Assembly: GCA_025677605.1 (NCBI GenBank)
Contig: GCA_025677605.1_4110.1
Direction: 5' to 3' (one strand)
DNA length: 64,000 nt
Source: a phage
The position numbers and the translations under genes are program-made. Of this stretch, positions 1 through 64,000 are shown piece after piece. How positions within the stretch are numbered: the first letter of the stretch is position 1; each line of letters starts with the position of its first letter. The notes beneath the pieces are model-generated. The model was not told the DNA's origin and did no database searches. It saw nothing but the letters and a program-made list of their open reading frames with translations.

Positions 1-222
1 TAAGTGTTTTGCATCTTCATCAATCCAATCCTGAAACTGACCATTGTTTACGAGATGTTTATTAACATCACAACAGTTAGGTTGCTTTGATGGTGTACCG
101 TTATATCCAGTACTCAATACTCGGTTATTCTTTACAATAACACAACCTACTTTCTGGGAAAGACACTTACTTTCCTCAGCAACGACACTGGCTATCTTCA
201 ACCACGTTGTATGTTTCATCAT
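1..222 (-). CDS. cd: dCMP deaminase, N-terminal part (gene continues beyond left edge of window)
   Basis: Minus-strand frame absent from the ORF track because it runs off the window: MMKHTTWLKIASVVAEESKCLSQKVGCVIVKNNRVLSTGYNGTPSKQPNCCDVNKH... This matches the ESKC..KVGAVI..R(I/V)xSTGYNG.P...NCCD N-terminal pattern I recall for T4 Cd / ComEB-type deaminases. The HAE and PCxxC zinc motifs would lie outside the window. Confidence 0.85.
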   Translation of the reverse strand, partial: MMKHTTWLKIASVVAEESKCLSQKVGCVIVKNNRVLSTGYNGTPSKQPNCCDVNKHLVNNGQFQDWIDEDAKHL

Positions 223-697
223 ATGTCCCTAAATTGGTTAATAGTTCTTTACAGATCTGATGTGTACGTAAAATACGCATATAGTCTACTATATCTTTCT
301 GTGTAATGTCAAATGGTTTTGAGCTATAAACATTCCAGCAACGAACGATTTCCAGAATGAAATCCACTTCCTTATTCATAATCTTATCAACTGCCACGAT
401 AACATCTTTTTCGTTTTGTTCTAATGTACGACCAGTATCTGAAAAAATCCCACCTAATGTGAACATCGCCCCACTATACAACCCAATAAAAATATCAGAT
501 GGTTTGTACATATTATACATAGTAAGTGCATAAATTTTCATGAAGATATTACGGTGAAAGTGTTTGTATGTTTTTTCTTTAGCTTCGTCTGATACACGGT
601 CAGCTTCCGAAATACATTGTCGCACAAGTTCCAACGTATTGTTTACGTTCTTTAGCCAAATATCAGTATCTTCTTGTGATAATTGATTATAGTTCAT
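176..697 (-). CDS. hypothetical protein (173 aa)
   Basis: ORF-track ORF in the uninterrupted minus-strand gene train. Its 3' end overlaps the cd start by 47 nt. No motif recognised. Confidence 0.55.
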   Translation of the reverse strand: MNYNQLSQEDTDIWLKNVNNTLELVRQCISEADRVSDEAKEKTYKHFHRNIFMKIYALTMYNMYKPSDIFIGLYSGAMFTLGGIFSDTGRTLEQNEKDVIVAVDKIMNKEVDFILEIVRCWNVYSSKPFDITQKDIVDYMRILRTHQICKELLTNLGTYDETYNVVEDSQCRC

Positions 698-698
698 A

Positions 699-1208
699 TC
701 ACTCCTTTAATTTTAAAGATTCAACCATCTCTTCACACATTTTCATGTGATGATATTGTTTTTCATCTAAAGTATATGGGATATTACGACCTTGTAAATC
801 CATACTAATATCATAATTTCTATACATAAATGACGAGTGCTTAATCATAAATGTTACAGCTTCCCAAACTTTACCCGATTCTTCATATATTTCCTTAGTA
901 TTGATTGATGTTAATTTTCTAATTTTTTTAATATCCATACCAACAATTGTTGAATTGAAATCAAGTCCAATGTAATTAAAATTCATACAATTATATCTTA
1001 ATACTAGTCCATCTCCCTCAGTTATAGTAGTAAGAAACCACTGGTAATCATTAATTTTATGATACCATTTTCTTGTATTCAAATAATTATCGTACCATTT
1101 CTTGGTTATTTCTATTGCTTCAGTACTGATATTTTTTGCGTACTCATTTATTAAAAACATATTTTTTGAGAACTCAATACTGCTTTCTTTAGTGATTTTA
1201 AAGATCAT
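699..1208 (-). CDS. hypothetical protein (169 aa)
   Basis: ORF-track ORF with tight junctions to neighbours. No motif recognised. Confidence 0.6.
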   Translation of the reverse strand: MIFKITKESSIEFSKNMFLINEYAKNISTEAIEITKKWYDNYLNTRKWYHKINDYQWFLTTITEGDGLVLRYNCMNFNYIGLDFNSTIVGMDIKKIRKLTSINTKEIYEESGKVWEAVTFMIKHSSFMYRNYDISMDLQGRNIPYTLDEKQYHHMKMCEEMVESLKLKE

Positions 1209-1561
1209 TAAAGTATTACCTCCTTCCTAGTGTTACTTGCGTCGCACCAATAAAAGACGTGCCAGTCAGGAAACTCCTTCTTTATTTGTACTGCACAAGC
1301 TTGACTTAATATATGTGATGCTTGTTGGATCATAAACATCCCAGGTGCTTCCACATTTATCATATCCGATGGTGACAGATATGAACTCCAATTGGATGCC
1401 TCCCAAATTTGCTGGTAAACATACAAGCTATGCATTAAACCTGCACTAAAAAGTTTTTTGTATCCATCAAGATCATCATTAATCCAATAGTCTCCTGTTT
1501 CAGAAGTCCATATAGGATCAGATGAATAATCCATATCAACAGAAATGTAAACTTTACTCAT
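1208..1561 (-). CDS. hypothetical protein (117 aa)
   Basis: ORF-track ORF with a 1-nt overlap to the downstream gene. No motif recognised. Confidence 0.6.
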   Translation of the reverse strand: MSKVYISVDMDYSSDPIWTSETGDYWINDDLDGYKKLFSAGLMHSLYVYQQIWEASNWSSYLSPSDMINVEAPGMFMIQQASHILSQACAVQIKKEFPDWHVFYWCDASNTRKEVIL

Positions 1562-1609
1562 ATAATTTACCTATGCGAAAAGGGAGTACAATGACTCCCA
1601 TTTATTTAA

Positions 1610-2056
1610 TCACTTTTCGGTCGGTGTATAGTTATATTGTTGACAATCTTCAACAGTTAATACACCTTCATCGTAGCCGTACTGAAGTACAATATCAAAT
1701 GCTTCATCTACCATAGTAACAACATCACGATAACGGACAATAGTATGTGCACGTTTTTCAACAGCTTTCATGATACCCATTAGCAGCCATTTACCTTCGT
1801 CGGTATGTAGTTTTGCAAAACGTGGTCGTTTAGTTGCTGCCATAATATCAGTCCAATCAGCCTTAAAGACTTCAGGACGTTTAGGTATATCAAACAATGT
1901 AGTTGGGAAGGTTACATTGTTTTTCTTCATTGCGTCAGCTTGTGCAGCACGATAGCCTTGACGGAAAATTGGATGCTGCATTTTAAGTTGTTCTGGTGAC
2001 AATACTAGTTTATTTTTAAACGCATCATAACCATCTTTGTATTGTTCATTAGCCAT
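1610..2056 (-). CDS. hypothetical protein (149 aa; start trimmed from ORF-track 2149)
   Basis: The internal ATG at 2056 (MANEQYKDGY...) is preceded by AAGGAA and sits 4 nt after the stop of the upstream gene. The longer ORF would overlap that gene by about 90 nt. Confidence 0.55.
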   Translation of the reverse strand: MANEQYKDGYDAFKNKLVLSPEQLKMQHPIFRQGYRAAQADAMKKNNVTFPTTLFDIPKRPEVFKADWTDIMAATKRPRFAKLHTDEGKWLLMGIMKAVEKRAHTIVRYRDVVTMVDEAFDIVLQYGYDEGVLTVEDCQQYNYTPTEK

Positions 2057-2060
2057 TGTA

Positions 2061-2354
2061 TTATTCCTTATCTTCTGTGCTGACAGCTTTTTTCTCGTTG
2101 AATGAACCGTGTTCGGCTCGCAAATTTGCAGCATATTGCACCGCATCAATTGGTTTAATATTGTTCTTCATAAGAACTTCTTGCATCAATTCAAGAATTT
2201 CAGCCATACCAACCAGTAGGTCTTCTGATTCTTTAATGTCTTTTAGTGCTAACGCTTGAGTACTGATCTGCTCTAGTGCAGTACTGATGAATTCCGAATC
2301 ATCAAGAATTTCAACTTCTTCAGTGCTAGAGTTTCGTACAAGTTTCTTTGACAT
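2061..2354 (-). CDS. hypothetical acidic protein (97 aa)
   Basis: ORF-track ORF with TAAGGAG upstream of the ATG. No motif recognised. Confidence 0.6.
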   Translation of the reverse strand: MSKKLVRNSSTEEVEILDDSEFISTALEQISTQALALKDIKESEDLLVGMAEILELMQEVLMKNNIKPIDAVQYAANLRAEHGSFNEKKAVSTEDKE

Positions 2355-2365
2355 TTTAACTCCTT

Positions 2366-2391: not shown

Positions 2392-2417
2392 AATATATTT
2401 TAAGTTTTAGTACTGAA

Positions 2418-3952: not shown

Positions 3953-3961
3953 AGTAATCCC

Positions 3962-6200: not shown

Positions 6201-7397
6201 TTATAGATAATAGGTTCCATAAAAAATAGGACAGTCAGTGCTAATATGAACCATAGTTTTTTTATTAGATTCTGATGAATTATTACTATATCGTTTGGTC
6301 GGTGGATAGAAAGGTGAATTATAACCACGCCATGTATTGAAAGATGTATGTTCATCGATATCAACATCCATTGACATTACACCATTCGCATCAACTTCTA
6401 CTGGGTATCCGCAGTATTTTTCAAAATCACCCTTGTACGCTATAGAATAATCATGGCGATAATATCCATAGGAATTTCTGCTGTTGTTATCTGAAATACC
6501 AAAGAATACACGATATTTTTGACCATTCTGTTCAGTCATGAATAATACGTTTTCATTGAAACGACCATTAACAAGAACGTCTTTAGTGATTTCAGTGTAT
6601 TTTACTTTCATATCAGTACTTTTAAATGATTTAGTACTGATCAGTACTGGCCTATTACATTCACCTAATGCGTTCTCAGTTCGCATTCGGTACGTATTGA
6701 AATATGCATTTGCTTTAACAATTTCAGCTTCCATTGTTGTTTTAACGTTATGGAGTGCTCTGGGTGTTAATTCGTATCGGTCAAGGCTTGCACATACACC
6801 ATATGTACCATCAGCGATACAATACACCATATGATAGAAAGAACTTTTGTTAGGTAAAGAGAATTCTTTAGTTTTCTTCAAACAAAGAGCATGAACGCGA
6901 CCACAATAGTAGTACTCTTTTTTGTTATAAAGGAATCCATCACCAACTTTCAACTCACCAACAACGCTTTTACGTTCTTCAGCTTTTTCTTGCTTCTCTT
7001 GCATCTTAGCAAATGTTTTTGTATTACCATTGATGAGTTCAAGATTATTATTAAAGAACATAGCATCTTGGAATACACCATTAACGATATCATTGTGTGT
7101 GATTAAGTCCAGCATATTGTTTGCAGTGATATTGAACTCAAATCCTTCTGGGTGACGACAAACAAAATAGGTATCACGCCCACTGTGAATCAATTTTTGA
7201 ACAATAGCAAAACCTTTTTTCGGTTCATTGTCGAGTATAAGTGACGGCATATTATTGGTTCTTGCCCAGTACTCAACACGTTCTTTCTTAGTTTCAAATG
7301 CTTTAGTGTGCATTTTAGTTGCGTCGATAATATATCCGTCAACCTGATCCCCACTAACAAAACGTCTTGCGACGAAAATCTTTTCAGGAAAATTCAT
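6201..7397 (-). CDS. hypothetical protein (398 aa; start trimmed)
   Basis: The ATG at 7397 (MNFPEKIF...) shares one nucleotide with the upstream stop (TGATG junction). The ORF-track start at 7460 would overlap by 64 nt. Confidence 0.6.
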   Translation of the reverse strand: MNFPEKIFVARRFVSGDQVDGYIIDATKMHTKAFETKKERVEYWARTNNMPSLILDNEPKKGFAIVQKLIHSGRDTYFVCRHPEGFEFNITANNMLDLITHNDIVNGVFQDAMFFNNNLELINGNTKTFAKMQEKQEKAEERKSVVGELKVGDGFLYNKKEYYYCGRVHALCLKKTKEFSLPNKSSFYHMVYCIADGTYGVCASLDRYELTPRALHNVKTTMEAEIVKANAYFNTYRMRTENALGECNRPVLISTKSFKSTDMKVKYTEITKDVLVNGRFNENVLFMTEQNGQKYRVFFGISDNNSRNSYGYYRHDYSIAYKGDFEKYCGYPVEVDANGVMSMDVDIDEHTSFNTWRGYNSPFYPPTKRYSNNSSESNKKTMVHISTDCPIFYGTYYL

Positions 7398-53103: not shown

Positions 53104-53133
53104 CTAAATCACTCCCGTCTTTGTTGTATTGTG

Positions 53134-53163
53134 TGTTATTGCATGTTATTGCATGTTATTGCG
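53134..53163 (-). repeat. 3 x 10-nt tandem direct repeat in an intergenic leader
   Basis: The plus strand reads tgttattgca tgttattgca tgttattgcg (minus strand (C/T)GCAATAACA x3), located between a predicted promoter and the GGGAG SD of 52567..53103. Confidence 0.8.
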
Positions 53164-53164
53164 T

Positions 53165-53192
53165 ATTATAACACAATCTCTTTTAACTTCAA
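53165..53192 (-). promoter_or_regulatory. possible sigma70-type promoter TTGAAG-N16-TATAAT
   Basis: Read on the minus strand. It overlaps the 3' end of 53166..53804. The -35 is weaker than at the other sites. Confidence 0.35.
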
Positions 53193-54330: not shown

Positions 54331-54356
54331 GGGGTTCTCCTTAAAAATGTTCAGGT

Positions 54357-54385
54357 ATATTAGCACCGATTCGGTACTGTGTCAA
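54357..54385 (-). promoter_or_regulatory. sigma70-type promoter TTGACA-N17-TAATAT
   Basis: Read on the minus strand in the gap between 54411..54908 and 53797..54330. Confidence 0.6.
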
Positions 54386-54393
54386 TACCAAAA

Positions 54394-54424
54394 CGAAAAA
54401 AGCCCATATCTTACGATACAGGCT
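54394..54424 (-). terminator. probable intrinsic terminator overlapping the stop of 54411..54908
   Basis: Minus strand reads AGCC-TG-TATC-GTAA-GATA-TG-GGCT (4+4 bp with a 2-nt internal mismatch) followed by TTTTTTCG. Confidence 0.5.
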
Positions 54425-54908
54425 CGGTTGGGTAAAAGGACTCATATACATTTTTCATTTGCTGGAAATAAAAATATACATGATTCTTAAGCACACCATT
54501 CTCATAAAGCATCTTGTATATTGCGTAGAAAAAGATATCAATTTCTTCATGTATTGTACTGTACTGGAACCACAACTCCGGTGTCAAGGGTTCTGGACTG
54601 TATTTGATTTCCAACAAAGCATCATCCATTGGCTTATCACGTCCTGGATACATATACCAAAGGTCATCTCTTTCCAGACGAAGATCATCTTCATCAGGAT
54701 ATACATTGTCAGGAGCAAAATTTAAAAAACTAAAAAGCACTTTACCTGAATTTGATTCTTCTAACTGATTGTTAATATAATCATATTTGTGATTTATTGA
54801 AGCATATCCTTTTCCTTCATATGCTTTCATTATATTGTATACACCTTCAATGTACTTAACGTACTGTACAGCACTCTCTAAACTAAATTCCACTTTACAT
54901 TTTTGCAT
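54411..54908 (-). CDS. family B (FQxS) protein
   Basis: TPELWFQYSTIHE. Confidence 0.65.
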   Translation of the reverse strand: MQKCKVEFSLESAVQYVKYIEGVYNIMKAYEGKGYASINHKYDYINNQLEESNSGKVLFSFLNFAPDNVYPDEDDLRLERDDLWYMYPGRDKPMDDALLEIKYSPEPLTPELWFQYSTIHEEIDIFFYAIYKMLYENGVLKNHVYFYFQQMKNVYESFYPTEPVS

Positions 54909-55246
54909 AATAAAATAATCTCAACTAAAGCAAGAACTGTATTGAATTCCACTATACTTGTAATTCCCTGAAGGTACATGTACTTTGCTATTACATATTT
55001 CTGTACTAAATTATCATTCTTCTTGAATTCATCAAACGCATCATTACAACGTGTCATGTATTCTGTACTCAAAAATATCTTATGCATCTCTAATGCACTC
55101 TGATAATATGCATACAACTCACGAATATCTATACTACGTAAATCACGTTGTTCGTACTTGTGATACGGAATAGCTTCAATTTCAATATTATAAAACCATT
55201 CTGTTAACTTATTAATATCAAATGTATTATTGTACTTCGAGGTCAT
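54878..55246 (-). CDS. hypothetical protein (122 aa; start trimmed)
   Basis: The ATG at 55246 (MTSKYNNTFD...) is preceded by AAGGAA. No family motif. Confidence 0.55.
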   Translation of the reverse strand: MTSKYNNTFDINKLTEWFYNIEIEAIPYHKYEQRDLRSIDIRELYAYYQSALEMHKIFLSTEYMTRCNDAFDEFKKNDNLVQKYVIAKYMYLQGITSIVEFNTVLALVEIILLCKNVKWNLV

Positions 55247-55535
55247 AATATTTCCTTTCCCATTCGGATACATGGGCATTAAAATTCATAACAGCTTTCT
55301 GTATCTTTTTTAATAATAACACATCATATCCACCTGTGTCAATCACTAATTGCTGTTGAAACAATTCTTCGTCGGATAATGTATTGAAATCTACAAAATA
55401 ATCTGTGACTTCGTTATCATTTAAATGTGCCATGTACCAACCTGAACTACATGAATAAATCAAATTCCAACCGTCTTCATCGCCTTCTAATTCAACATAA
55501 ATCATATCTTTTGTATAAAGCATTCTATACTTCAT
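55227..55535 (-). CDS. family B-like protein, short form
   Basis: SDEELFQQQLVID. 102 aa. Confidence 0.6.
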   Translation of the reverse strand: MKYRMLYTKDMIYVELEGDEDGWNLIYSCSSGWYMAHLNDNEVTDYFVDFNTLSDEELFQQQLVIDTGGYDVLLLKKIQKAVMNFNAHVSEWERKYYDLEVQ

Positions 55536-56040
55536 AACTATATCCTTGCATCAAAATATCATAAACTGCTTGAATGTCAGGAACTTTTATATAAAATTTA
55601 AAACCCTTAATTAAAGGATTCGCGTACAATGAACTGAATAACTTTAGATAATGCATTTGACGAGGACTATATAATAACGATTTCTGAAATAATTCAGCAC
55701 TACAATCTGTACTAATATCAATTAAATCAATTCGTTCTTCTACTTCATCATCTTGTTTCAAATCATAAAAGAAATAATCGTTTGTGTTTACCCACAAATA
55801 CCCTTCTTTATTTTCGTATACAACAGGAGATGTTTGTACCGGATTGGCTTGGGTAAATGCTGCAATACAAACGTTAACATTCCCTGCATTATTTGCATTG
55901 TGAAACATAAACGATAATTTACCATGCCTATCTTCTATGCGTAATTCATCTATATCAATGTACTTATGTATAGGATGATTATTTTTGAGCATAAGCATTA
56001 TTGTACTAATCTTGTGCGTTAATAATTCAATTTCATTCAT
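55525..56040 (-). CDS. family B (FQxS) protein
   Basis: CSAELFQKSLLYS. Confidence 0.65.
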   Translation of the reverse strand: MNEIELLTHKISTIMLMLKNNHPIHKYIDIDELRIEDRHGKLSFMFHNANNAGNVNVCIAAFTQANPVQTSPVVYENKEGYLWVNTNDYFFYDLKQDDEVEERIDLIDISTDCSAELFQKSLLYSPRQMHYLKLFSSLYANPLIKGFKFYIKVPDIQAVYDILMQGYSYEV

Positions 56041-56046
56041 ATATTA

Positions 56047-56430
56047 TTACCTATAGCATTTGAGCACTGTAACCAATCCCTCTGCATTCTTGAAATGCAT
56101 TAAAGACAATGAACTATCAACGTACTGCAATGATATAATTACATCCTGTTCTGTGTGTTTGAATAAAAATTCCTGTACCGAATTCGTACCATAATACATG
56201 TACTTCGTTGCTTCAATCTGCAAATAAGGCACTTCTGTATTGTGTAAAAAGATATTGATTATTTCATTATTCTGTAATCTGCAATCAAATTTGTATGTTT
56301 CATATAACGGTACATCCGATGATGCCTGTACTGCCTGTACTGCCTGTGCTGCATGAGCGGTGTTTATAAATGATAAAAACACAAATGTTAAAATGAATAT
56401 GATTTTATTGAACATGTTTTGTTTCCTCAA
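56047..56430 (-). CDS. secreted/periplasmic protein with Sec-type signal peptide
   Basis: MRKQNMFNKIIFILTFVFLSFINTAHA-AQAVQAVQAS: a basic n-region, a hydrophobic core and an AHA-A cleavage-type site, followed by a short AQAVQ repeat. Confidence 0.6.
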   Translation of the reverse strand: MRKQNMFNKIIFILTFVFLSFINTAHAAQAVQAVQASSDVPLYETYKFDCRLQNNEIINIFLHNTEVPYLQIEATKYMYYGTNSVQEFLFKHTEQDVIISLQYVDSSLSLMHFKNAEGLVTVLKCYR

Positions 56431-56624
56431 TAATGTTTGTACTTGTGTAAAATTCTATCCTGTACTGAAAGATGCTCAAATATAATTACACTCAAATAAT
56501 AATTGTAATCATTGATACCACCCCTCAAATGCATATTGTAATACAGCTTAATACTATCTAATAATGAATCCTGTAATGCATGTAATGCATTTAATGTCTT
56601 TGCATCTATCATCATCTTTCCCAT
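56427..56624 (-). CDS. hypothetical small protein (65 aa)
   Basis: ORF-track ORF. Confidence 0.5.
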   Translation of the reverse strand: MGKMMIDAKTLNALHALQDSLLDSIKLYYNMHLRGGINDYNYYLSVIIFEHLSVQDRILHKYKHY

Positions 56625-57013
56625 TTAATAGGGTATTCCGTTTCATTCACTACATACGACATAATCCATCCGTAATGGATAGGATGATATTTGTCTGAAT
56701 CAGGAATAAAATATAAAGCTGTACTGGGATTATAACTGAAGAAATCCCTCTCGTCAAATGTTAATCTGGCTAACTTAATTTTCCTTGGAATTGCATGAGG
56801 ACGAACTGCATTCTTTACACAGAATATACCATCTTTGTATTTTGGTTCGATAACACCCAATGCACTCTGGATTAACTCCTGAAAGACTAAATTGATTTGT
56901 GCAAATGAATCCTTGTTGTTATGCATTTCGTGCCATAAATCTCGTCTTGCATTTAACATCATTATTACTGGTCTAAGATCCTGTACTATTGTTAGATTCT
57001 GCATTGTATTCAT
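56612..57013 (-). CDS. hypothetical protein (133 aa)
   Basis: ORF-track ORF. Confidence 0.55.
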   Translation of the reverse strand: MNTMQNLTIVQDLRPVIMMLNARRDLWHEMHNNKDSFAQINLVFQELIQSALGVIEPKYKDGIFCVKNAVRPHAIPRKIKLARLTFDERDFFSYNPSTALYFIPDSDKYHPIHYGWIMSYVVNETEYPIKWER

Positions 57014-57230
57014 TTATCTCATTCTGTAACTTAACAACCAAAATTTGCGTATGAATTTTTCGCTCAAGGTGCTTGATAAATTTCTGTACCATTTCTTCTT
57101 GTACTGATGTACCAAGATAAAATAACATATTAAATTCTGATAATCGCAGAGCAAAATCTTCATCGCCCCCCTGTAAACAAAAATCCCTGTACTTCGATGC
57201 GTACAAATGATGGTTTACATTTTTGTACAT
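56973..57230 (-). CDS. family C (LGTNYQ-like) small protein
   Basis: FYLGTSVQEEMVQKFIKHL. Confidence 0.55.
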   Translation of the reverse strand: MYKNVNHHLYASKYRDFCLQGGDEDFALRLSEFNMLFYLGTSVQEEMVQKFIKHLERKIHTQILVVKLQNEINEYNAESNNSTGS

Positions 57231-57433
57231 TTAGACTCCTTTGGTGTGCATACTATCTCTGTTCGTAAAGCCCTTATGTATGCATCAACGAATTGTGGCT
57301 GTGCTCTCGTTCCTAGATAAAATAATAAATCGAACTCTGCCATTTTAACATTAAAAGGATCTGAATCTACATTTCGAATAAACTGTCTGTACTTCAATTC
57401 ATATCCGTTAGGCATCTTCTTGTATACTATCAT
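57215..57433 (-). CDS. family C (LGTNYQ-like) small protein
   Basis: FYLGTRAQPQFVDAYIRAL. Confidence 0.55.
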   Translation of the reverse strand: MIVYKKMPNGYELKYRQFIRNVDSDPFNVKMAEFDLLFYLGTRAQPQFVDAYIRALRTEIVCTPKESKCTKM

Positions 57434-57743
57434 ATTCTATACAATCACCTCTTTTAATCGAATCCCAAACTTCTTTCATCCTCTTCTGTAAACTGCACAT
57501 AATATCTATATCAAACATATAAGGGTCATGAATTAGACTGTACTGAAATAATTCATCTTCCTGCATAAGAGAAAGATCCTGAAGCAACTCGTACTTACCT
57601 AAACTCCTGGGACTCAAATAAGCAAAATATTCTTTACCGTCCTCAAAAACATAATGTACTTCATGATTCATGTACTTCTTGTAATTCTCATGCGTATAAG
57701 CAAATATACAACCGGAATTAATTCGGTGAATGTTGAATTTCAT
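57408..57743 (-). CDS. family B (FQxS) protein, short form
   Basis: QEDELFQYSLIHD. 111 aa. Confidence 0.65.
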   Translation of the reverse strand: MKFNIHRINSGCIFAYTHENYKKYMNHEVHYVFEDGKEYFAYLSPRSLGKYELLQDLSLMQEDELFQYSLIHDPYMFDIDIMCSLQKRMKEVWDSIKRGDCIEYDSIQEDA

Positions 57744-57752
57744 ATTAATCTC

Positions 57753-58079
57753 TTATACGTAAATTGGATGAATATTTTGAAGGAAATGCTTAGAAATATT
57801 CATACATGATATCATCTGCCTTTGTACTTCCTTCATCTCTTTGTATGTCAACCCAAAAGAATCATCGTATACTAACATGTACTGAAACTCTTCTTCTTCA
57901 GAGATATCAACTAGATTCGGTACTGCTATCGTATTTTCATATGATTTGATACCTTCTACCCAATAGAAACAATTATCAACTTTATTGTACTCAAATATCT
58001 TAACCCCAGGCCCACCCTGTACATTGGTCAACGCAATGAAACATGTATTCGCTCTTTTTATACAATTGATCTTACGCAT
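57753..58079 (-). CDS. family B-like protein, short form (start trimmed)
   Basis: SEEEEFQYMLVYD. The ATG at 58079 (MRKINCIKR...) has GGAG upstream and avoids overlap with 58087..58332. Confidence 0.6.
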   Translation of the reverse strand: MRKINCIKRANTCFIALTNVQGGPGVKIFEYNKVDNCFYWVEGIKSYENTIAVPNLVDISEEEEFQYMLVYDDSFGLTYKEMKEVQRQMISCMNISKHFLQNIHPIYV

Positions 58080-58086
58080 TATCGCA

Positions 58087-58332
58087 TTATCTCCATCTCT
58101 CTCCGTCATCGCAAGAGTACTGGTACGTTGTCGTTAGGGTAGGAATCATGTTCGTAATCGGCATATTATTCACAATAACCGTTACGGGCATCATAACCGT
58201 CTCTTTTCTACTCTGTCCTGTCTTTGTGCAATTCATCTTGTGCATTTCATCTGAATCCAGATACGCTAATACAAACGGTGCAATCCCAAGAACAATACAC
58301 AAGACGATAAGGAAATTTAAAAATTTTAACAT
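58087..58332 (-). CDS. small membrane-anchored protein (81 aa)
   Basis: N-terminal TM helix LNFLIVLCIVLGIAPFVLAYL. Confidence 0.55.
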   Translation of the reverse strand: MLKFLNFLIVLCIVLGIAPFVLAYLDSDEMHKMNCTKTGQSRKETVMMPVTVIVNNMPITNMIPTLTTTYQYSCDDGERWR

Positions 58333-58361
58333 AATCTGTACCCTATGATTAACGTTAGTGT

Positions 58362-58390
58362 ACTATAGCACTACAATAGAGTACTGTCAA
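58362..58390 (-). promoter_or_regulatory. sigma70-type promoter TTGACA-N17-TATAGT
   Basis: Read on the minus strand. The -35 lies in the last codons of 58371..58601 and the -10 in the 38-nt gap. Confidence 0.55.
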
Positions 58391-58601
58391 CTGCTTTGTT
58401 CTCTATTATACTCATTAAACCCCAAATTAGATAACGAACACTATCAGCTTGATAGTTAGTACCTACTGTGCATTTTAAAATTAACTCATCTTTCAGTACT
58501 GCACGTTCTTCTTGGGATATAGGAAGAGAATTTATTTGTTTTATTTGTGGTTGTAAAGTATTAATAAGCTTGCAGTACTCTTCGAATGATAATCTTTTCA
58601 T
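58371..58601 (-). CDS. family C (LGTNYQ) small protein
   Basis: CTVGTNYQADSVRYLIWGL. Confidence 0.6.
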   Translation of the reverse strand: MKRLSFEEYCKLINTLQPQIKQINSLPISQEERAVLKDELILKCTVGTNYQADSVRYLIWGLMSIIENKAVDSTLL

Positions 58602-58604
58602 GGT

Positions 58605-58946
58605 TCAGTACTCAATAATGTGTTCTTCATAAGCACTATTAGGCTCCTGTTTAGTTTCTTTTATTAGTACTATCATCTTATGTGCCAATGGCATAGGAAA
58701 CTCTAAATCCCATACTAATGATTCTTGAAAGTATTCTTCTTCAGATAAAGTACTTAAATCTTCAATGTCAATGTGTTCGTACATGTTATATTTGTAATCA
58801 GCAAAAGATATATAAAAACCTCTTGTAGAATCGTAAGTAATCGTGAATGGCTTACCTTTGTAGTCCATTACATCTTTACATAGACTGCATTTGATATATG
58901 TACTTGCAAATGATTTATAAACCTTAAGTTGAATATTAGTTTTCAT
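58605..58946 (-). CDS. family B (FQxS) protein, short form
   Basis: SEEEYFQESLVWD. 113 aa. It sits between family C genes. Confidence 0.65.
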   Translation of the reverse strand: MKTNIQLKVYKSFASTYIKCSLCKDVMDYKGKPFTITYDSTRGFYISFADYKYNMYEHIDIEDLSTLSEEEYFQESLVWDLEFPMPLAHKMIVLIKETKQEPNSAYEEHIIEY

Positions 58947-58948
58947 TT

Positions 58949-59170
58949 TTAAACACCTATTCCATTAGCAATAGCAGTACTTAACGCTAACAAATACTTC
59001 TGTACTGCTTGCTCTTGATGATCTGTACCTAAAAGTATATACACCCATAATTCACTGTAGTGTACATCTTCTGTATAAGGGTTGTTGTAACTTTTTGATA
59101 ATATAGCATCAAATTCAGATGCATGAACCCTTGTGAACTTAAGAATATCTTGTTGTGTTATGATTCTCAT
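58949..59170 (-). CDS. family C (LGTNYQ) small protein
   Basis: ILLGTDHQEQAVQKYLLAL. Confidence 0.6.
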   Translation of the reverse strand: MRIITQQDILKFTRVHASEFDAILSKSYNNPYTEDVHYSELWVYILLGTDHQEQAVQKYLLALSTAIANGIGV

Positions 59171-59382
59171 AGCTTTTCCTGTATAAGCTTCTTAAGTATT
59201 TCTATGTGTGAATTAACAGTTCTTTCTTGATGCTGTGTTCCTAAGAGTATCAGTACTATCATCTCTGAACGCAAAAGATTTTTTTCAAGTTCCCCTATAT
59301 CAGTTCTTGTATCAAGTACTAAAAATTTGTGATTATTCTTTCTGAATAGTTCTAAGTACTCTTGATTTGATATTGTCTTCAT
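59167..59382 (-). CDS. family C (LGTNYQ) small protein
   Basis: ILLGTQHQERTVNSHIEIL. Confidence 0.6.
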   Translation of the reverse strand: MKTISNQEYLELFRKNNHKFLVLDTRTDIGELEKNLLRSEMIVLILLGTQHQERTVNSHIEILKKLIQEKL

Positions 59383-59609
59383 AGTTTATCCCTGATGCCA
59401 TTTAAAAGTGCTCTAATATGCTCCTGTACGAATTTGTACTGACTGTCTGTTCCTAGAGTGAGTAACAATCTTAAATCTGAACTTTTGATATGATATTCTA
59501 AATCATTATTTGATTCTTGCCTCAGTTTCTGAAAGGATGAGAAGTTTGCTGCCATTAGTTCAATGTATTCTGCTGTTCCTAGGGGTTTGTGTATGTGCTG
59601 TCTGTGCAT
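59379..59609 (-). CDS. family C (LGTNYQ) small protein
   Basis: LTLGTDSQYKFVQEHIRAL. Confidence 0.6.
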   Translation of the reverse strand: MHRQHIHKPLGTAEYIELMAANFSSFQKLRQESNNDLEYHIKSSDLRLLLTLGTDSQYKFVQEHIRALLNGIRDKL

Positions 59610-59815
59610 TTTAATTGTATTACCCTTTTAAGTGTATTAATATAATCCACGATGATGTGTTCTTGATAGTTAGTTCCTATAGTAGCTAGAACATAGATTT
59701 CACTTATTAGAATATTTTTTTCATCCTGTGATAATTCTTCTGACCAGCTACGATGCAACTTTGGAATTAAACTACTTAATAGTTGGTTGTATTCAGTAGG
59801 TGAAATGATTTTCAT
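59579..59815 (-). CDS. family C (LGTNYQ) small protein
   Basis: ATIGTNYQEHIIVDYINTL. Confidence 0.6.
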   Translation of the reverse strand: MKIISPTEYNQLLSSLIPKLHRSWSEELSQDEKNILISEIYVLATIGTNYQEHIIVDYINTLKRVIQLKCTDSTYTNP

Positions 59816-60027
59816 TTACATCTTCTCAGTACTGATTCTTTAAGTTCATCGATGTAGTCCTCAACAAATTGTTCTTGTAGGTTTGTTCCGAGATGTAACA
59901 GTACTCTTAAATCTGCTCTAAGTACTTCTTTGTCATCTTCATCTATATCAGACAGTGATATGTTTAAGAATTTACTTGAATTCTCTATAAGTAATATTAC
60001 TTCATCACCTTCGCTTAAAATTTTCAT
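59812..60027 (-). CDS. family C (LGTNYQ) small protein
   Basis: LHLGTNLQEQFVEDYIDEL. Confidence 0.6.
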   Translation of the reverse strand: MKILSEGDEVILLIENSSKFLNISLSDIDEDDKEVLRADLRVLLHLGTNLQEQFVEDYIDELKESVLRRCK

Positions 60028-60239
60028 AATCTTTGTGTTTTCCTCGACAGTAGGTACAGGTAACGTTCAGTGCATTGTTCTTGATAGTTTGTTCCTAATA
60101 AATGAACTAATTGTTGTTCAGCTATAGAAAGCTGTTTATCTTCATAACAAGCGTATCGTTGTTTCCTATGGTATTCTTTATTGATAACATCAAGGATGAT
60201 AACACCGTATTCGTCATCTGTCAAGTGTTTCATGTGCAT
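60024..60239 (-). CDS. family C (LGTNYQ) small protein
   Basis: HLLGTNYQEQCTERYLYLL. Confidence 0.6.
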   Translation of the reverse strand: MHMKHLTDDEYGVIILDVINKEYHRKQRYACYEDKQLSIAEQQLVHLLGTNYQEQCTERYLYLLSRKTQRL

Positions 60240-60471
60240 TTCTTTTTCTTATATGTTTAGTTAAAAGGTATATTAGTTTTCTTACGTACTCGTCTTGATA
60301 GTTAGTCCCTAATAGTGCAAGAAGTTTTGCTTCAACTAAAGCTAATTGTCGTTCTTCAAATGTGTGTTCCAGAATGTACTTGGGGTTTGATTTTTTAGAA
60401 ATTGCACTATTAGTCTTCATTATAATCTTATGATATTCATTGACTGTTAAGATTTTTATATATTTGGTCAT
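60214..60471 (-). CDS. family C (LGTNYQ) small protein
   Basis: ALLGTNYQDEYVRKLIYLL. Confidence 0.6.
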   Translation of the reverse strand: MTKYIKILTVNEYHKIIMKTNSAISKKSNPKYILEHTFEERQLALVEAKLLALLGTNYQDEYVRKLIYLLTKHIRKRNAHETLDR

Positions 60472-60691
60472 GTATCTTTTCCTGAATAGTCATTTTAAGA
60501 TATCTAAGAATCGATCGAACATAATACTCCTGTCTATCGGTTCCAAGAAAGTACAGGAGTTGTTGATATAATACTTCTGCACTCCTTGCAGCAGGGGTTT
60601 GATTTGGGTCTTTTGGAAGTTGATTTGTATGTTTTCTGGATTTAATTATTCTTTCTTTTATTTCATCGTCTGTTAAGTATATCATTTGCAT
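60437..60691 (-). CDS. family C (LGTNYQ) small protein (start trimmed)
   Basis: YFLGTDRQEYYVRSILRYL. The ATG at 60691 gives MQMIYLTDDE, matching the sibling N-termini MQMINLS.DEY, and sits in the recurring ATGCAAATGA junction. Confidence 0.6.
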   Translation of the reverse strand: MQMIYLTDDEIKERIIKSRKHTNQLPKDPNQTPAARSAEVLYQQLLYFLGTDRQEYYVRSILRYLKMTIQEKIHDQIYKNLNSQ

Positions 60692-60918
60692 TTTATGTTC
60701 CTCACATGAATTGTTTGGATTAAACATTCAATCCAAGATGTAACATATCTTGTTTGATATTGTGTGCCTAAGAGACTCTGCATTTTAAACTCTGCTTCAA
60801 GTTCATATCTCTTTTCTATCGTAAAGCTTAAATGACCATATTCTGCATCGTATCTTCTCAGTGATTCCCCAATTCTATCAAATCTTTCTGCTAAGTTGAT
60901 GTTATTCACAGTATTCAT
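60682..60918 (-). CDS. family C (LGTNYQ) small protein
   Basis: SLLGTQYQTRYVTSWIECL. Confidence 0.6.
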   Translation of the reverse strand: MNTVNNINLAERFDRIGESLRRYDAEYGHLSFTIEKRYELEAEFKMQSLLGTQYQTRYVTSWIECLIQTIHVRNIKCK

Positions 60919-61178
60919 CGATCAGTACACCTCAGTGGTTGGGTCATTTGATAAAAGTACAGCTTACCTCTGATTTCCATTAACAACTCGGCTATGACGC
61001 GATTTACTTCTGTCTCTTGATAGTTTGTTCCTAAGAAGACACCCATCTTTAACTCACGATGCATAATCATCTTCTTACTGTGTTGAATTTCTTGGCTGTA
61101 ATAGATTGCATTACGTTTAGGTGAGATTTTTGCTAGTCGCTCGTTATATTCATCTTGACTTAAATTAATCATTTGCAT
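60915..61178 (-). CDS. family C (LGTNYQ) small protein
   Basis: VFLGTNYQETEVNRVIAEL. Confidence 0.6.
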   Translation of the reverse strand: MQMINLSQDEYNERLAKISPKRNAIYYSQEIQHSKKMIMHRELKMGVFLGTNYQETEVNRVIAELLMEIRGKLYFYQMTQPLRCTDR

Positions 61179-61393
61179 TTACTTTGGACCTCATTTTGAA
61201 GTGCATTAATGACCTTCAGTACAGCACTCGCTTGATAGTTTGTTCCTAAGACTGAAAGCATCTTGATCTCATTTACTACAATCCACTTATTTGATTGTTC
61301 AATAATGTGACTTTCATAAATGGCCTTGCGTAATGAATAAGTTTTTGCAAGACGTACATAATATTCATCTTTACTTAAATTAATCATTTGCAT
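61169..61393 (-). CDS. family C (LGTNYQ) small protein
   Basis: SVLGTNYQASAVLKVINAL. Confidence 0.6.
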   Translation of the reverse strand: MQMINLSKDEYYVRLAKTYSLRKAIYESHIIEQSNKWIVVNEIKMLSVLGTNYQASAVLKVINALQNEVQSKCK

Positions 61394-61602
61394 TTACTTT
61401 TAACCTCTTTCTGGAGTGCATCAATCCATAGGTCTATATACGTTTGTTGATAGTTTGTGCCTAAGAGTGCCTCTACATAGAGTTCAGCTACCTTTGCGTG
61501 CTTTAGGTCAACAGGGATGCTCTTATCGCTTGATAACATTCTCCTTCTGCTGGTGCATGTTTTCAGAAGCCTGATGTATTCAACACCTTGTAATTTTCTC
61601 AT
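61384..61602 (-). CDS. family C (LGTNYQ) small protein
   Basis: ALLGTNYQQTYIDLWIDAL. Confidence 0.6.
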   Translation of the reverse strand: MRKLQGVEYIRLLKTCTSRRRMLSSDKSIPVDLKHAKVAELYVEALLGTNYQQTYIDLWIDALQKEVKSKCK

Positions 61603-61814
61603 TCTCTGGATATCACCTTGTTACGTAGACTTGCTAACCATGCGTCAGTATAGATGTTTTGATAGTTTGTCCCAATGAAGATAGATAGCTTCATTTCAGT
61701 TATTATAACACATTTGTCCACTTGTGCAATAGATTTGTTTAAAGAAATACTAGAAACTTTTGCTTGTATAGTTCGCAACAGCCTGTAATATTCATACCCA
61801 CTAAGGATTTTCAT
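61599..61814 (-). CDS. family C (LGTNYQ) small protein
   Basis: IFIGTNYQNIYTDAWLASL. Confidence 0.6.
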   Translation of the reverse strand: MKILSGYEYYRLLRTIQAKVSSISLNKSIAQVDKCVIITEMKLSIFIGTNYQNIYTDAWLASLRNKVISRE

Positions 61815-62061
61815 TCTCTCGTCTCCAGACTTCCGTTCTTATATGTTGTTGATATGCTTCCAGATAGTTCTCTATTGCCTTAGAGATTGTTTGTGTATCG
61901 TCGCCCGTCATCAGTACAAGCATCTCTGCTTCACAGTGTATAAGTCTGCTAATATCATTAGTGAGTTTATCAGATACCGTATCATAGTGTTTGTGGATTA
62001 GTTTCTGAAATAGTTTAACGTACATAATGTGATTTATTCTGGATCGCATTGTCTTTTCCAT
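61801..62061 (-). CDS. family C-like small protein (divergent core)
   Basis: VLMTGDDTQTISKAIENYL at the equivalent position. Confidence 0.5.
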   Translation of the reverse strand: MEKTMRSRINHIMYVKLFQKLIHKHYDTVSDKLTNDISRLIHCEAEMLVLMTGDDTQTISKAIENYLEAYQQHIRTEVWRRENENP

Positions 62062-62285
62062 TCTCTTTTGGCCTGTCGGGTTTTATACGCTACAAGGTTT
62101 CTTAGTGCATTGATATAACGATCAGTGAAGATATCTTGTTTATTAGTTCCAACGAATTTAAGAAGAAACACGTCACCATTAACTACATCATTCTCAGGGG
62201 AAGGATAAAGTTCATTGTTCTTGCGAAGGGTGTTTAGTAAAGAGAATAGGGCAGATTGATACTCAGTGCTTGATAATACTTTCAT
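62034..62285 (-). CDS. family C (LGTNYQ) small protein
   Basis: KFVGTNKQDIFTDRYINAL. Confidence 0.6.
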   Translation of the reverse strand: MKVLSSTEYQSALFSLLNTLRKNNELYPSPENDVVNGDVFLLKFVGTNKQDIFTDRYINALRNLVAYKTRQAKREWKRQCDPE

Positions 62286-62509
62286 TAGTTCATTCCCTTT
62301 CTTTCTATATGTTTCATAAGAACATTAAGATACTCACCCACAAACCTATTCTGATACTGCGTCCCCATGAATTCAAACAGCCATACTTCAGCAACCATTT
62401 CTTCAATTTCATTCCAAGATAAGTACATCATAGTGAAGTAAATGTGGTTCTCTTTTTGAGATGCACTCCTTGAGCGAGCCTCGTATTCAAAGTTATTAAT
62501 GCAGTTCAT
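62285..62509 (-). CDS. family C (LGTNYQ) small protein
   Basis: EFMGTQYQNRFVGEYLNVL. Confidence 0.6.
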   Translation of the reverse strand: MNCINNFEYEARSRSASQKENHIYFTMMYLSWNEIEEMVAEVWLFEFMGTQYQNRFVGEYLNVLMKHIERKGMN

Positions 62510-62718
62510 AGTTTACTCCTGATGTATTTCTCAAGAGCTATTAGATACTCTTGGACATAAGATTTCTGGTGGTCAGTTCCTAAGAAGACACCCAGAAGTA
62601 ATTCTTTTTCCATAACTTTTGATAAGTATACATCATCCCTGTCTGCATATATCAGCAAGATTTCAATCTGCTTAGAATTGTAACGTTTCCTATATTGCTC
62701 TGGTGTTAATATAATCAT
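62506..62718 (-). CDS. family C (LGTNYQ) small protein
   Basis: VFLGTDHQKSYVQEYLIAL. Confidence 0.6.
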   Translation of the reverse strand: MIILTPEQYRKRYNSKQIEILLIYADRDDVYLSKVMEKELLLGVFLGTDHQKSYVQEYLIALEKYIRSKL

Positions 62719-62924
62719 AGTTTACTCTTTATATCTTCAATTAAAAATCCAATACAATCATTGACATACTCTTCCTGAAAGTTAGTCCCCAGTACAGCCA
62801 ACATGCGATACTCTGCTGACCTTATCGCTCTTTCAGTTTTTGGTAAGTTACGTGGTATAGTTACCATCAATTCAAGATACTCCACCATACGACTCAATGC
62901 TTGTCTTTGTGTTATAGTTTTCAT
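62715..62924 (-). CDS. family C (LGTNYQ) small protein
   Basis: AVLGTNFQEEYVNDCIGFL. Confidence 0.6.
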   Translation of the reverse strand: MKTITQRQALSRMVEYLELMVTIPRNLPKTERAIRSAEYRMLAVLGTNFQEEYVNDCIGFLIEDIKSKL

Positions 62925-63121
62925 AATTTACACCTCGCTCGTATGTCAGCTTTCAAAGATTCCAAATAGTGCGTTACCCACACTTCCTGATAGTTGGTTC
63001 CCATCGTAATCAACAGGTACAACTCAACTCTTTCTAAGTGCACATTGCTTTGGTAAATCCTTGCCGTGTTTTTACGTAGTATATGATGATATTCATCTTG
63101 GGTTAATGTACGCATTTTCAT
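62921..63121 (-). CDS. family C (LGTNYQ) small protein
   Basis: ITMGTNYQEVWVTHYLESL. Confidence 0.6.
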   Translation of the reverse strand: MKMRTLTQDEYHHILRKNTARIYQSNVHLERVELYLLITMGTNYQEVWVTHYLESLKADIRARCKL

Positions 63122-63315
63122 AGTTTACCATTTATCTCTAAACATAACTCTTTTACATATAGTTTAACATATTCATTTTGTAAGTTAGTTCCTAAGAATA
63201 GTTCCATAACTAATTCACGTTTATAGGCATTACCACGTTTATGAGACTTATACATTATCATAGCCATGTTATTGATAAGTCTTTCGTGATGCTCTTCTTG
63301 TGTTAAAATACGCAT
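63118..63315 (-). CDS. family C (LGTNYQ) small protein (first gene of the array)
   Basis: LFLGTNLQNEYVKLYVKEL. Confidence 0.6.
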   Translation of the reverse strand: MRILTQEEHHERLINNMAMIMYKSHKRGNAYKRELVMELFLGTNLQNEYVKLYVKELCLEINGKL

Positions 63316-63340
63316 AGGGCAAATTCCATAGGTTCATATA

Positions 63341-63375
63341 TGAAAAAACATCATACCCCATATGAGGCATGATGT
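63341..63375 (-). terminator. intrinsic terminator after 63382..63966
   Basis: Minus strand reads ACATCATGCCTC-ATAT-GGGGTATGATGT (12-bp stem including G.U pairs) followed by TTTTTTCAT. Confidence 0.75.
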
Positions 63376-63378
63376 CAA
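63350..63378 (-). promoter_or_regulatory. sigma70-type promoter TTGACA-N17-TATGAT at the head of the family C array
   Basis: Read on the minus strand. It is superimposed on the terminator hairpin (-35 at the 5' foot, -10 in the 3' arm) and lies about 35 nt upstream of the first family C ATG. Confidence 0.5.
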
Positions 63379-63381
63379 GTG

Positions 63382-63966
63382 TTAAAGCTTACCCATGTAA
63401 GTAAGTTCTTCCATAATAAATTTTAGTCCAGCTTCGTCGGTGAGTTCAGTACAGCCATCTTTGATTTTAACATGTTGCATATGATTAATTAAATTAGTAT
63501 ACTTCAACATATCCTCAAGGTCAGCAGCTTCAACTGAGTTTTCAAACAGTACAGCTATGATTTCTTCAGAATCGAACCTATTGTTATATTTGAATAGTTC
63601 ACGACGATTTGTTAAATTATGAGTAACTCCGTATTTGTAAACAACTTCACTATTGTGGATGAACTTATTGACATAGAAATAAGCTTCATGCGAACCATTG
63701 AATGTCTTACGCTTATAACAATCTGGGCAGTTTGTTATATTACCATTTTCAACTATATGACACATTTTTCGTTCAAAAATACAACCACATTTACATTCAA
63801 GATTGCATGTGTAATTACCATATACTCCATGTCTATTTGATTTACCTGACGGAATATACCCATTACATCTTATATCATTTCCCTGAAATTCTAGAATGCA
63901 ATTAGCAACGTAAACTATATCTTTATCAGTATATCGTATACGAGAAATATTATTAGCTTTCATCAA
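63382..63966 (-). CDS. T5orf172 / GIY-YIG-superfamily-like protein with N-terminal Cys-rich region
   Basis: EAYFYVNKFIHNSEVVYKYGVTHNLTNRRELF resembles the (Y)xYV....(Y)KxGxT.....R signature of T5orf172/MUG113-type GIY-YIG-like domains. Upstream are the Cys clusters CNLECKCGC and CPDC. Confidence 0.4.
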   Translation of the reverse strand: MMKANNISRIRYTDKDIVYVANCILEFQGNDIRCNGYIPSGKSNRHGVYGNYTCNLECKCGCIFERKMCHIVENGNITNCPDCYKRKTFNGSHEAYFYVNKFIHNSEVVYKYGVTHNLTNRRELFKYNNRFDSEEIIAVLFENSVEAADLEDMLKYTNLINHMQHVKIKDGCTELTDEAGLKFIMEELTYMGKL

Positions 63967-64000
63967 ATAATTAGCTGACCTTGTAAGTAAAACACCATTA

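Follow-up and report, generated by a model that had tools for sequence, protein, structure and literature searches.

A highly iterated AGTACT palindrome maintained at the DNA level in RaK2-like jumbo phages

Introduction

The palindromic hexamer AGTACT is present in great excess in a 64,000-nucleotide stretch of phage DNA (NCBI GenBank assembly GCA_025677605.1, contig GCA_025677605.1_4110.1), which is referred to in its entire length as the window. This excess is kept by lineage-specific selection at the DNA level. Base composition, codon use and protein sequence cannot yield it, and synonymous codon choice and dipeptide choice are the means by which the word is placed. Our preferred explanation, which we hold tentatively and would rate a little short of even, is that AGTACT may be a recognition word of RaK2-like jumbo phages that is maintained by selection and read by a sequence-specific protein that these phages encode and that is conserved in the clade.

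The window is the reverse complement of the genome of an Asteriusvirus jumbo myovirus (a coliphage). Its identity to Escherichia phage A4 (ON286972, 355,528 bp), in which it corresponds approximately to positions 27,268-91,267, is 98.8-99.2%, and the phages 121Q, PBECO4 and G17 are further relatives at ~78-84% identity. Every gene in the window lies on the minus strand, and neither tRNA genes nor Rfam families were found in it. A4 was analysed as a whole genome, and the other relatives were sampled as stretches of 40-50 kb. The features discussed below are collected in Table 1.

Results

Abundance and specificity of the word

Exact counting finds one AGTACT per ~346 bp of the window, for a total of 185 copies where base composition predicts 21.5. 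Dinucleotide-preserving shuffles (n = 100) yield 17.3 ± 4.6 copies with a maximum of 29, such that the observed number was reached by none. A preliminary description of this DNA, made from the letters alone, had claimed strong over-representation from hand counts, and the claim is borne out by 185 observed copies against 17-21.5 expected. Those counts were within one of the exact values for positions 1-3000 (4 versus 5), 3001-6000 (13 versus 14) and 6001-9000 (9 versus 9), and were correct for 40021-43000 (7) and 58081-59000 (8). Three copies had also been assigned to the short interval 6601-6640, which holds only 2, as the third begins at 6643.

Among the 64 palindromic hexamers, AGTACT is the most over-represented at 8.6x, and the runner-up, CATATG, reaches 2.3x. 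The GTAC core is itself enriched in the window (552 versus 196 expected), and enrichment is greatest at the level of the hexamer. The nine classes of one-mismatch neighbours range from 0.7x to 3.4x; neighbours that keep the GTAC core are mildly enriched, and the AGTATT/AATACT class sits at 0.94-1.11x. A weaker, symmetric preference extends the word by C at -1 and G at +1, which over the whole A4 genome are present at 47% and 49% of sites, respectively, and there is no information beyond ±1. The resulting extended consensus is (T)C-AGTACT-G(A), and the forms CAGTACTG and TCAGTACTGA occur in 53 and 16 copies in the window. Beside this excess, site avoidance is also apparent. No copy is present of 26 G+C-rich palindromic hexamers, among them GGATCC, CTGCAG, GGTACC and CCATGG, and GATC is found 111 times versus 196 expected (0.57x).

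Independence from coding

Although ~90% of the copies lie inside open reading frames (ORFs), the word is not confined to one reading frame. As the preliminary description had stated, it occurs in all three codon phases, with 80, 26 and 57 copies in frames 0, 1 and 2 and another 22 outside ORFs, a few of which are really coding given that the ORF set was built mechanically. Synonymous shuffles within genes, which preserve each protein and each gene's codon usage (a usage that is itself inflated by AGTACT), produce 49.0 ± 5.9 copies with a maximum of 66, compared with the 163 observed in ORFs (z = 19). Pooled synonymous shuffles yield 38.5 copies and codon permutation yields 23.7. The codon-preserving shuffle had been proposed at the outset as the test that could overturn the case for DNA-level selection, and its outcome leaves that case intact. 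An origin of the excess as a by-product of codon usage or protein sequence is thus ruled out by three kinds of shuffle.

The choice of codons reveals how the word is accommodated. Ser-Thr dipeptides are spelled AGT-ACT in 77 of 121 cases (64%; 17.7 expected) and Val-Leu dipeptides are spelled GTA-CTN in 73 of 128 (27 expected), whereas the reverse spelling ACT-AGT shows no excess (1 versus 7.6 expected). The use of CTG for leucine had been singled out earlier as unexpected in this genome, and indeed 38 of the 94 leucine codons that follow a GTA valine codon are CTG, compared with 142 of 1348 overall. Even the dipeptides are asymmetric in number, with 121 Ser-Thr versus 52 Thr-Ser and 128 Val-Leu versus 65 Leu-Val. 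This asymmetry, together with the AGT-ACT spelling, indicates that the DNA word biases protein sequence and not the reverse. Genes on the plus and minus strands of A4 are similarly rich in the word (2.3 and 1.9 copies per kb).

Phylogenetic spread and conservation of sites

In each of the relatives sampled, AGTACT ranks first or second among over-represented hexamers, with an excess of 8- to 11-fold. Observed and expected counts are 144 and 16 for 121Q, 137 and 15 for RaK2 (Alcyoneusvirus), 145 and 15 for GAP32 (Mimasvirus), 170 and 15 for Xanthomonas phage XaC1, and 922 and 120 for the whole A4 genome. Phage CBB is enriched throughout, and G17 also carries the excess. The excess is absent from 50 kb of T4 (12 versus 16.7 expected), from 40 kb of the more distant relative PA5oct (positions 100,001-140,000; 1 versus about 13) and from 50 kb of Escherichia coli K-12 (3 versus 11.6). 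In the same PA5oct stretch, CTGCAG and GCCGGC are over-represented.

The AGTACT excess is a trait of the phage lineage that does not depend on the host. Since it spans genera with different hosts and is absent from T4, E. coli and PA5oct, a protein that reads the word would be phage-encoded and clade-specific. A host factor was rejected as the reader because the hosts range from E. coli to Xanthomonas and the E. coli sample under-represents AGTACT. The preferred flanks vary by genus, with CAGTACTG in the E. coli and Klebsiella phages and AAGTACTT in XaC1 and GAP32, and therefore the hexamer is the constant core.

Individual sites are also conserved above background in aligned DNA. Copies in the window are kept in 121Q at 43 of 65 positions (66%, versus 34% for composition-matched hexamers; p = 8e-8), in RaK2 at 9 of 28 (32%, versus 10% for control hexamers; p = 1e-3) and in GAP32 at 7 of 19 (37%, versus 14%; p = 0.011).

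Strand-pure half-sites on either side of a palindromic centre

The distribution of the word changes abruptly near one end of the window. Through positions 1-51445, hereafter the bulk, the word is unskewed, with 246 AGTAC and 257 GTACT. At bulk density, 22 copies of AGTACT would be expected in zone L (Table 1), yet the zone has none (P = 2.7e-10). Instead, AGTAC is found 0 times on the plus strand and 52 times on the minus strand (p = 4e-16), mostly within the variant cTGTACTga, which keeps the usual flanks. On the sense strand this variant reads AGTACA and falls in all three frames (13/18/12), and its 43 copies compare with 15.5 ± 3.2 in synonymous shuffles. Zone R similarly lacks AGTACT (0 versus 13.5 expected) and carries the form cAGTACAg, which is the mirror image of zone L. 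Between the two lies a central zone with ordinary AGTACT at more than twice the bulk density. Zones L and R are transcribed in one direction despite the opposite orientation of their words. The preliminary description had passed over both of these AGTACT-free stretches.

A4, 121Q and G17 share this three-part arrangement, and the polar zones are absent from RaK2 and CBB. TGTACT in zone L is retained at 8 of 12 and 11 of 15 sites versus a background of 40-45%, AGTACA in zone R is retained at 4 of 5 and 5 of 5, and AGTACT in the central zone is retained at 9 of 10 and 8 of 10 in the relatives compared. In these comparisons the variants of zones L and R are never aligned to AGTACT. An assembly or basecalling artefact was rejected because the same zones recur in A4, 121Q and G17 at 80-97% identity. 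In G17, zone R stops exactly where unique DNA meets the terminal repeat (350,149/350,150), a junction that by homology would fall about 1.0-1.9 kb past window position 64000.

A family of small tandem paralogues provides a natural test of what determines the form of the word, as its members span the edge of zone L, the central zone and zone R. Their sense strand carries AGTACA in zone L, AGTACT in the centre and TGTACT in zone R. At homologous alignment columns 40 and 294, zone-L members have sense-strand AGTACA where central-zone members have AGTACT. Because the word form is set by position within one family, the rule is regional and acts at the DNA level rather than being inherited with the genes, and a horizontally acquired origin of the polar zones was rejected on the same grounds, given that a single family of 20 members carries three word forms by position. 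Moreover, strand-pure half-sites are most simply understood if the unit being read is AGTAC on each strand and the palindrome comprises two overlapping units. The functional unit is therefore probably AGTAC on a given strand.

A polar word of the type represented by Chi or KOPS was considered and rejected, because the bulk is palindromic and unskewed and polarity is confined to 51446-58115 and 59927-64000. The earlier proposal of selection on a HIP1-like DNA word is upheld by the shuffles, the reading frames, the spelling of Ser-Thr and Val-Leu, the conservation of sites, and the spread of the excess across phage genera together with its absence from T4, E. coli and PA5oct. The likeness to Chi or uptake words that accompanied it does not hold for the palindromic, unskewed sites of the bulk, and only the two polar zones hint at directional reading.

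Several other observations concern this region. Divergence from A4 is 1.0% in window positions 1-51445 and is 2.7% in zone L, 4.1% in the central zone and 5.5% in zone R, which suggests either faster evolution of the region that adjoins the terminal repeat or recombination with other lineages. The length of the paralogue array appears from the alignment to differ between A4 and G17. Co-directional gene arrays whose products are 150-210 amino acids long and form several small paralogous families occupy positions 29700-51400 and 51400-58100.

Early promoters and the terminal repeat

The genome of G17 (MK327931) carries two identical direct terminal repeats of 20,668 bp (1-20,668 and 350,150-370,817), and the same repeat length was obtained with PhageTerm for phage Sharanji (PMC11895373). 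The position of the terminal repeat in the window's own genome is taken from these two phages. The A4 record seems to start ~4.4 kb outside the repeat and to include one copy only (~4.4-25.4/26.3 kb). The repeat, which lies outside the window, is an early block of small genes that each have their own σ70-type promoter and terminator. AGTACT reaches its highest density here, at 5-9 copies per kb (about 6.7 per kb in A4), and peaks at 17 copies in 1.9 kb at the gene-free end of the repeat. Elsewhere in A4, densities are about 2.8 per kb (40-145 kb and 300-355 kb) and about 1.9 per kb (205-300 kb), with a minimum of about 1.7 per kb in the structural-gene block. Cleavage at AGTACT to produce the genome ends was rejected because the termini of G17 are not at the word.

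The early promoters of both A4 and RaK2 incorporate the word in a fixed register. They have the arrangement AGTAC-TTGACA (or TTGCAA), a spacer, and AGTAC-TG-TATAAT, such that paired copies bracket the -35 and -10 elements with a start-to-start distance of 20 or 22 bp. Often there is a third copy, TTCAGTACTGAA, ~23 bp upstream. Hairpins with AGTACT at the apex are likewise found in the early block of these two phages. Publications on CBB and PA5oct report promoters of the RpoD-like type and do not describe AGTACT.

Outside this early region, only 7 of 726 AGTACT sites in A4 precede a -10-like hexamer. Sites beyond the terminal repeat run evenly through gene bodies at 2-3.5 per kb, and A4 has no peak of the word upstream of gene starts there. 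No preferred short-range spacing or phasing was seen outside promoters, and gaps of 60 bp or less between sites are Poisson-like outside the terminal repeat. Around start codons in A4, the density of AGTACT falls three- to four-fold from -30 to +15, a dip that looks like exclusion of the word from ribosome-binding regions.

Other features of the window

A terminator palindrome proposed earlier at 13391-13414 is present, with the sequence AAAGGGATCAGTACTGATCCCTTT, and extends AGTACT by 9 bp on each side. Its RNA is predicted to fold into a 10-bp stem with a GUAC tetraloop (-15.5 kcal/mol, z = -3.5). The broader claim that intergenic hairpins in the plural contain the word was not sustained, as this is the sole extended hairpin of its kind in the window. 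Indeed, extension of the palindrome past 8 bp is at the level expected by chance, with this 1 long case among 185. An element of the REP or MITE type was rejected on the grounds that flank information ends at ±1, that there are no long palindromes beyond chance and that most copies are in ORFs.

The word was also said to occur in an ORF-free block, and it does so at 25609 and 25836 rather than at about 25608 and about 25846. This block of ~700 bp (25500-26190) contains only these two copies and has no tRNA or Rfam match. Its counterparts in A4 (65,083-65,776) and 121Q carry no annotation.

The Dam-family methyltransferase gene that the preliminary description had named is supported by its Pfam match (Table 1), and orthologues are annotated in 121Q, RaK2, GAP32 and CBB. 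The distance from the terminal repeat to this gene is ~41 kb in A4 versus ~11 kb in CBB. A C5 cytosine methyltransferase gene located beyond the window (A4 292,647-294,545) is split by an intein with Hint and LAGLIDADG homing-endonuclease domains.

Table 1. Coordinates of AGTACT-related features in the 64,000-nucleotide window
Feature	Position	Strand	Description
AGTACT, 185 copies	1-51450 and 58116-59926	.	exact count
AGTACT cluster, three copies (starts 6615, 6633, 6643)	6615..6648	.	dense placement inside coding region
Intrinsic-terminator hairpin, AGTACT at apex	13391..13414	-	perfect 24-bp palindrome, then U-run
Dam-family N6-adenine methyltransferase gene	23790..24311	-	Pfam PF05869, E = 4e-32
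Polar zone L	51446..58115	.	0 AGTACT, 43 TGTACT, 0 AGTACA on + strand
20 tandem paralogues, ~70 aa	56973..63315	-	conserved LGTNYQ; span zone L edge, central zone, zone R
Central zone	58116..59926	.	14 copies of ordinary AGTACT within 1.8 kb; entirely coding, with small paralogous genes
Polar zone R	59927..64000, continuing past window end	.	0 AGTACT, 9 AGTACA on + strand, 1 TGTACT

Discussion

A proposed recognition word and its possible reader

If AGTACT is a recognition word, its putative reader would be a DNA-binding or DNA-modifying phage protein that is conserved in the clade and recognises AGTAC, a 5-mer, on one strand at a time. A palindrome would then place this unit on both strands at one spot at the lowest cost, and would work in either direction of traversal. 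In the terminal repeat, copies that bracket the -35 and -10 elements at a distance of 20-22 bp, or two helical turns, would allow such a factor to occlude or modulate early promoters. Elsewhere, near-uniform sites at 2-3 per kb would mark or organise the whole genome. In the ~14-15 kb beside the terminal-repeat junction, the unit is presented on one strand, with opposite strands on either side of a centre of ~1.8 kb, and these opposed one-strand arrays would imply that reading is strand-specific and has a direction, either outward from the centre or inward towards it. Sharp specificity for a hexamer (8.6x versus at most 3.4x, with flanks of ±1) is of the kind expected of a restriction or modification enzyme. 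From this, the putative reader resembles either an enzyme of the restriction or modification type or a binding protein of very high specificity.

Several points weigh against the proposal of a dedicated reader protein. No such protein was found in this analysis, and a classical transcription factor would be expected to recognise a core longer than 6 bp. The uniformity of sites along gene bodies means that a purely gene-regulatory role fails for most copies, and because RaK2 and CBB lack the polar zones, the directional part of the proposal rests on one genus. Between the window and A4, which differ by 1.0%, 8 of 185 sites have changed versus 11 expected under neutrality (A4 has 4 sites in the aligned region that are missing from the window). 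Selection on each site is therefore weak or not detectable over this short range, as would be expected for a word with many sites. Neutral drive could also give the appearance of conservation.

A more specific possibility, which we consider unlikely but worth stating, is that AGTAC might be a strand-read signal of genome architecture for a phage-encoded machine that moves or polymerises along DNA, such as a barrier to replication, recombination or transcription, or a factor that coats the DNA. Across the recombining bulk, the palindromic form would let the signal work in both directions, and the opposed half-site arrays next to the terminal repeat would act as a directional gate or trap around a fixed point at ~58-60 kb. 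If true, such a signal would be the equivalent, in a virus, of Ter/Tus, KOPS or Chi, with an iterated palindrome as its building block.

Alternative explanations

Other accounts of the excess must be weighed against the recognition of AGTACT by a dedicated protein. The word could be an epigenetic mark in the style of HIP1, in which it would be the putative target of an orphan phage methyltransferase, for example the Dam-family enzyme, and its methylated or hemimethylated state would be read for self-marking, for the timing of early promoters after replication or for strand discrimination. We regard this account as rather doubtful. Specificity is exact for a 6-bp palindrome, a one-strand AGTAC unit would account for the half-sites, and the Dam-family gene keeps its place among the surrounding genes in A4, 121Q, RaK2, GAP32 and CBB. 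In addition, two orphan methyltransferases have their targets within HIP1 (PMC4390886), which is the closest precedent, and RaK2 DNA is reportedly cut only by methylation-tolerant enzymes (PMC3622015). However, PF05869-type enzymes are common among phages, with 1,675 phage records, the nearest relatives of the enzyme in the window outside the clade are only 43-46% identical to it, and a palindrome-specific methyltransferase would skip TGTACT and leave the half-sites unmarked rather than half-marked. The Dam-family gene is a candidate reader or modifier only, and nothing ties it to the word. The C5 methyltransferase was rejected as the reader, as its gene harbours an intein and bisulfite data from RaK2 point to a CpG-type enzyme, whereas AGTACT has no CpG. 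It is less probable still that AGTAC gives direction to replication or recombination and is read from a single template strand by a moving machine, for example as a preferred primase start or as a Chi-like signal for a helicase-nuclease. On this account, an origin, break or loading site would be fixed between the two polar zones, at about 58.1-59.9 kb, and palindromes would be readable by forks or ends that arrive from either side. T4-type primers start with pppAC opposite 5'-GT, and an origin or break in the central zone would put 5'-AGTACA-3' on the lagging-strand template in both zones (equivalent to 5'-TGTACT-3' on the 3'-ended strand). Strand purity in the polar zones is complete (0 versus 52 in zone L), and zone L holds 7.8 AGTAC units per kb of duplex, all on one strand, where the bulk holds about 6-7. 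Skew at fourfold-degenerate sites moves in opposite directions in zones L and R and has the right sign, but the rest of the genome fluctuates just as widely, so that skew gives no clear sign of an origin. No non-coding, AT-rich or iteron-like region was seen in the central zone. The account also fails to explain why AGTAC is barred from one strand near the centre yet tolerated on both elsewhere, and RaK2 and CBB have the excess without polar zones. To our knowledge, a trinucleotide is enough for primases and words of the Chi type lack symmetry, which also counts against it.

Neutral molecular drive, in which biased mismatch repair, repair of the very-short-patch type or gene conversion during T4-like recombination turns near-cognates into AGTACT and the word has no function, seems to us improbable. 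The near-neutral turnover described above is what this process would produce, it would also inflate apparent conservation, and several endonucleases are annotated in the genome (endonuclease VII, endonuclease V, HNH). Very-short-patch repair in E. coli leaves a pattern of depleted neighbours at CTWGG/CCWGG from which AGTACT differs, and drive of the Vsr type was rejected because no specific one-mismatch neighbour is depleted (0.7-3.4x). Drive also fits poorly with the stereotyped register of the word in promoters and at hairpin apices in two genera, with the density gradient from the terminal repeat down to the structural-gene block, and with the dip at ribosome-binding sites, and conserved, position-dependent half-site zones would be hard to obtain from a uniform process. 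Finally, there is hardly any room for the view that the excess simply follows from protein sequence, from codon usage or from a motif in RNA (AGUACU). The dipeptides Ser-Thr and Val-Leu are indeed common, and with all window genes on one strand, the RNA and DNA readings of a palindrome are inseparable within the window. Nevertheless, the synonymous shuffles (49 versus 163) already refute this view as a sufficient explanation. The word is found in all three frames and in non-coding DNA, genes on both strands of A4 are equally rich in it, and the polar zones are opposite in orientation under the same direction of transcription. The asymmetry of dipeptides is better read as the word shaping proteins.

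Significance

A clade of 350-kb phages spends coding freedom on ~900 copies of AGTACT, even to the point of biasing protein dipeptides. This implies that a major DNA-protein or epigenetic system has gone unrecognised in a group of phages under development for therapy, and the word is a handle for finding that system. The half-site zones and the promoter register make its function directly testable. Given that the role of highly iterated palindromes such as HIP1 is a long-open question, these phages offer a small and tractable model with which to address it. On a practical level, three things hinge on AGTACT in these phages, namely the patterns of digestion by ScaI and RsaI, basecalling that takes account of methylation, and synonymous recoding.

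We found no published description of the AGTACT excess in the literature on jumbo phages, Asteriusvirus, RaK2 and GAP32 within the searchable library, and literature matches to CAGTACTG alone were to primer sequences only. The bracketing of promoters in the terminal repeat, the TGTACT of zone L and the mirror-image AGTACA of zone R are new here.

Comparison with known systems

The closest comparison is with HIP1 of cyanobacteria (GCGATCGC), whose range of densities includes the ~1 per 350-400 bp of AGTACT. AGTACT has four features of such words, namely an excess over all null models, presence in all frames and in non-coding DNA, conserved sites and lineage-wide occurrence. Words of this type are also characterised by periodicity over long distances (10-90 kb) and by orphan methyltransferases directed at the word or its core. 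We know of no description of strand-pure half-site zones for HIP1 that resemble those of AGTACT. Both words are short, exact palindromes with genome-wide hyper-abundance throughout a lineage, occur in all frames and in intergenic DNA, and are conserved between related genomes above background (PMC4390886, PMC5861425). For HIP1, conservation between genomes has been read as the result of selection and not of biased repair (PMC5861425). AGTACT differs in that it is viral, is shorter at 6 bp, corresponds to the ScaI site and is built into early promoters, and its fold excess is lower (8-11x versus 15-300x). Furthermore, orphan methyltransferases have targets within HIP1, whereas a methyltransferase for AGTACT would be a candidate only.

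Phages are generally described as avoiding short palindromes. AGTACT is the site of a Type II enzyme (ScaI) and is nonetheless enriched 8.6x, which is the opposite direction from the restriction-site avoidance that other palindromes display in the same DNA. The excess of CCWGG in E. coli, which is attributed to Dcm and Vsr, is modest and is accompanied by depletion of the neighbour derived from T:G mismatches. Like CCWGG, AGTACT is a short palindrome raised genome-wide and possibly linked to a methyltransferase, but its excess is 8-11x and no neighbour is depleted.

Among phage systems, the stoperators and operators bound by the repressor gp71 of mycobacteriophage L5, reportedly described by Brown and colleagues in EMBO J in 1997, are said to be 13-bp asymmetric sites that occur in about 30 copies, in one orientation relative to transcription, and have a known repressor. 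AGTACT resembles them in being phage-specific, in being scattered both inside genes and at early promoters, and in that orientation matters. Unlike stoperators, it is a 6-bp palindrome with about 920 copies, and the orientation of its half-sites is not tied to the direction of transcription. Chi and KOPS are asymmetric words that are skewed over replichores and switch orientation at the origin or at dif, and Ter sites form two opposed groups. The half-site arrays of AGTACT are similarly pure and opposite on the two sides of a centre, although AGTACT is palindromic and unskewed in the bulk and its polarity is limited to about 14-15 kb in one genus.

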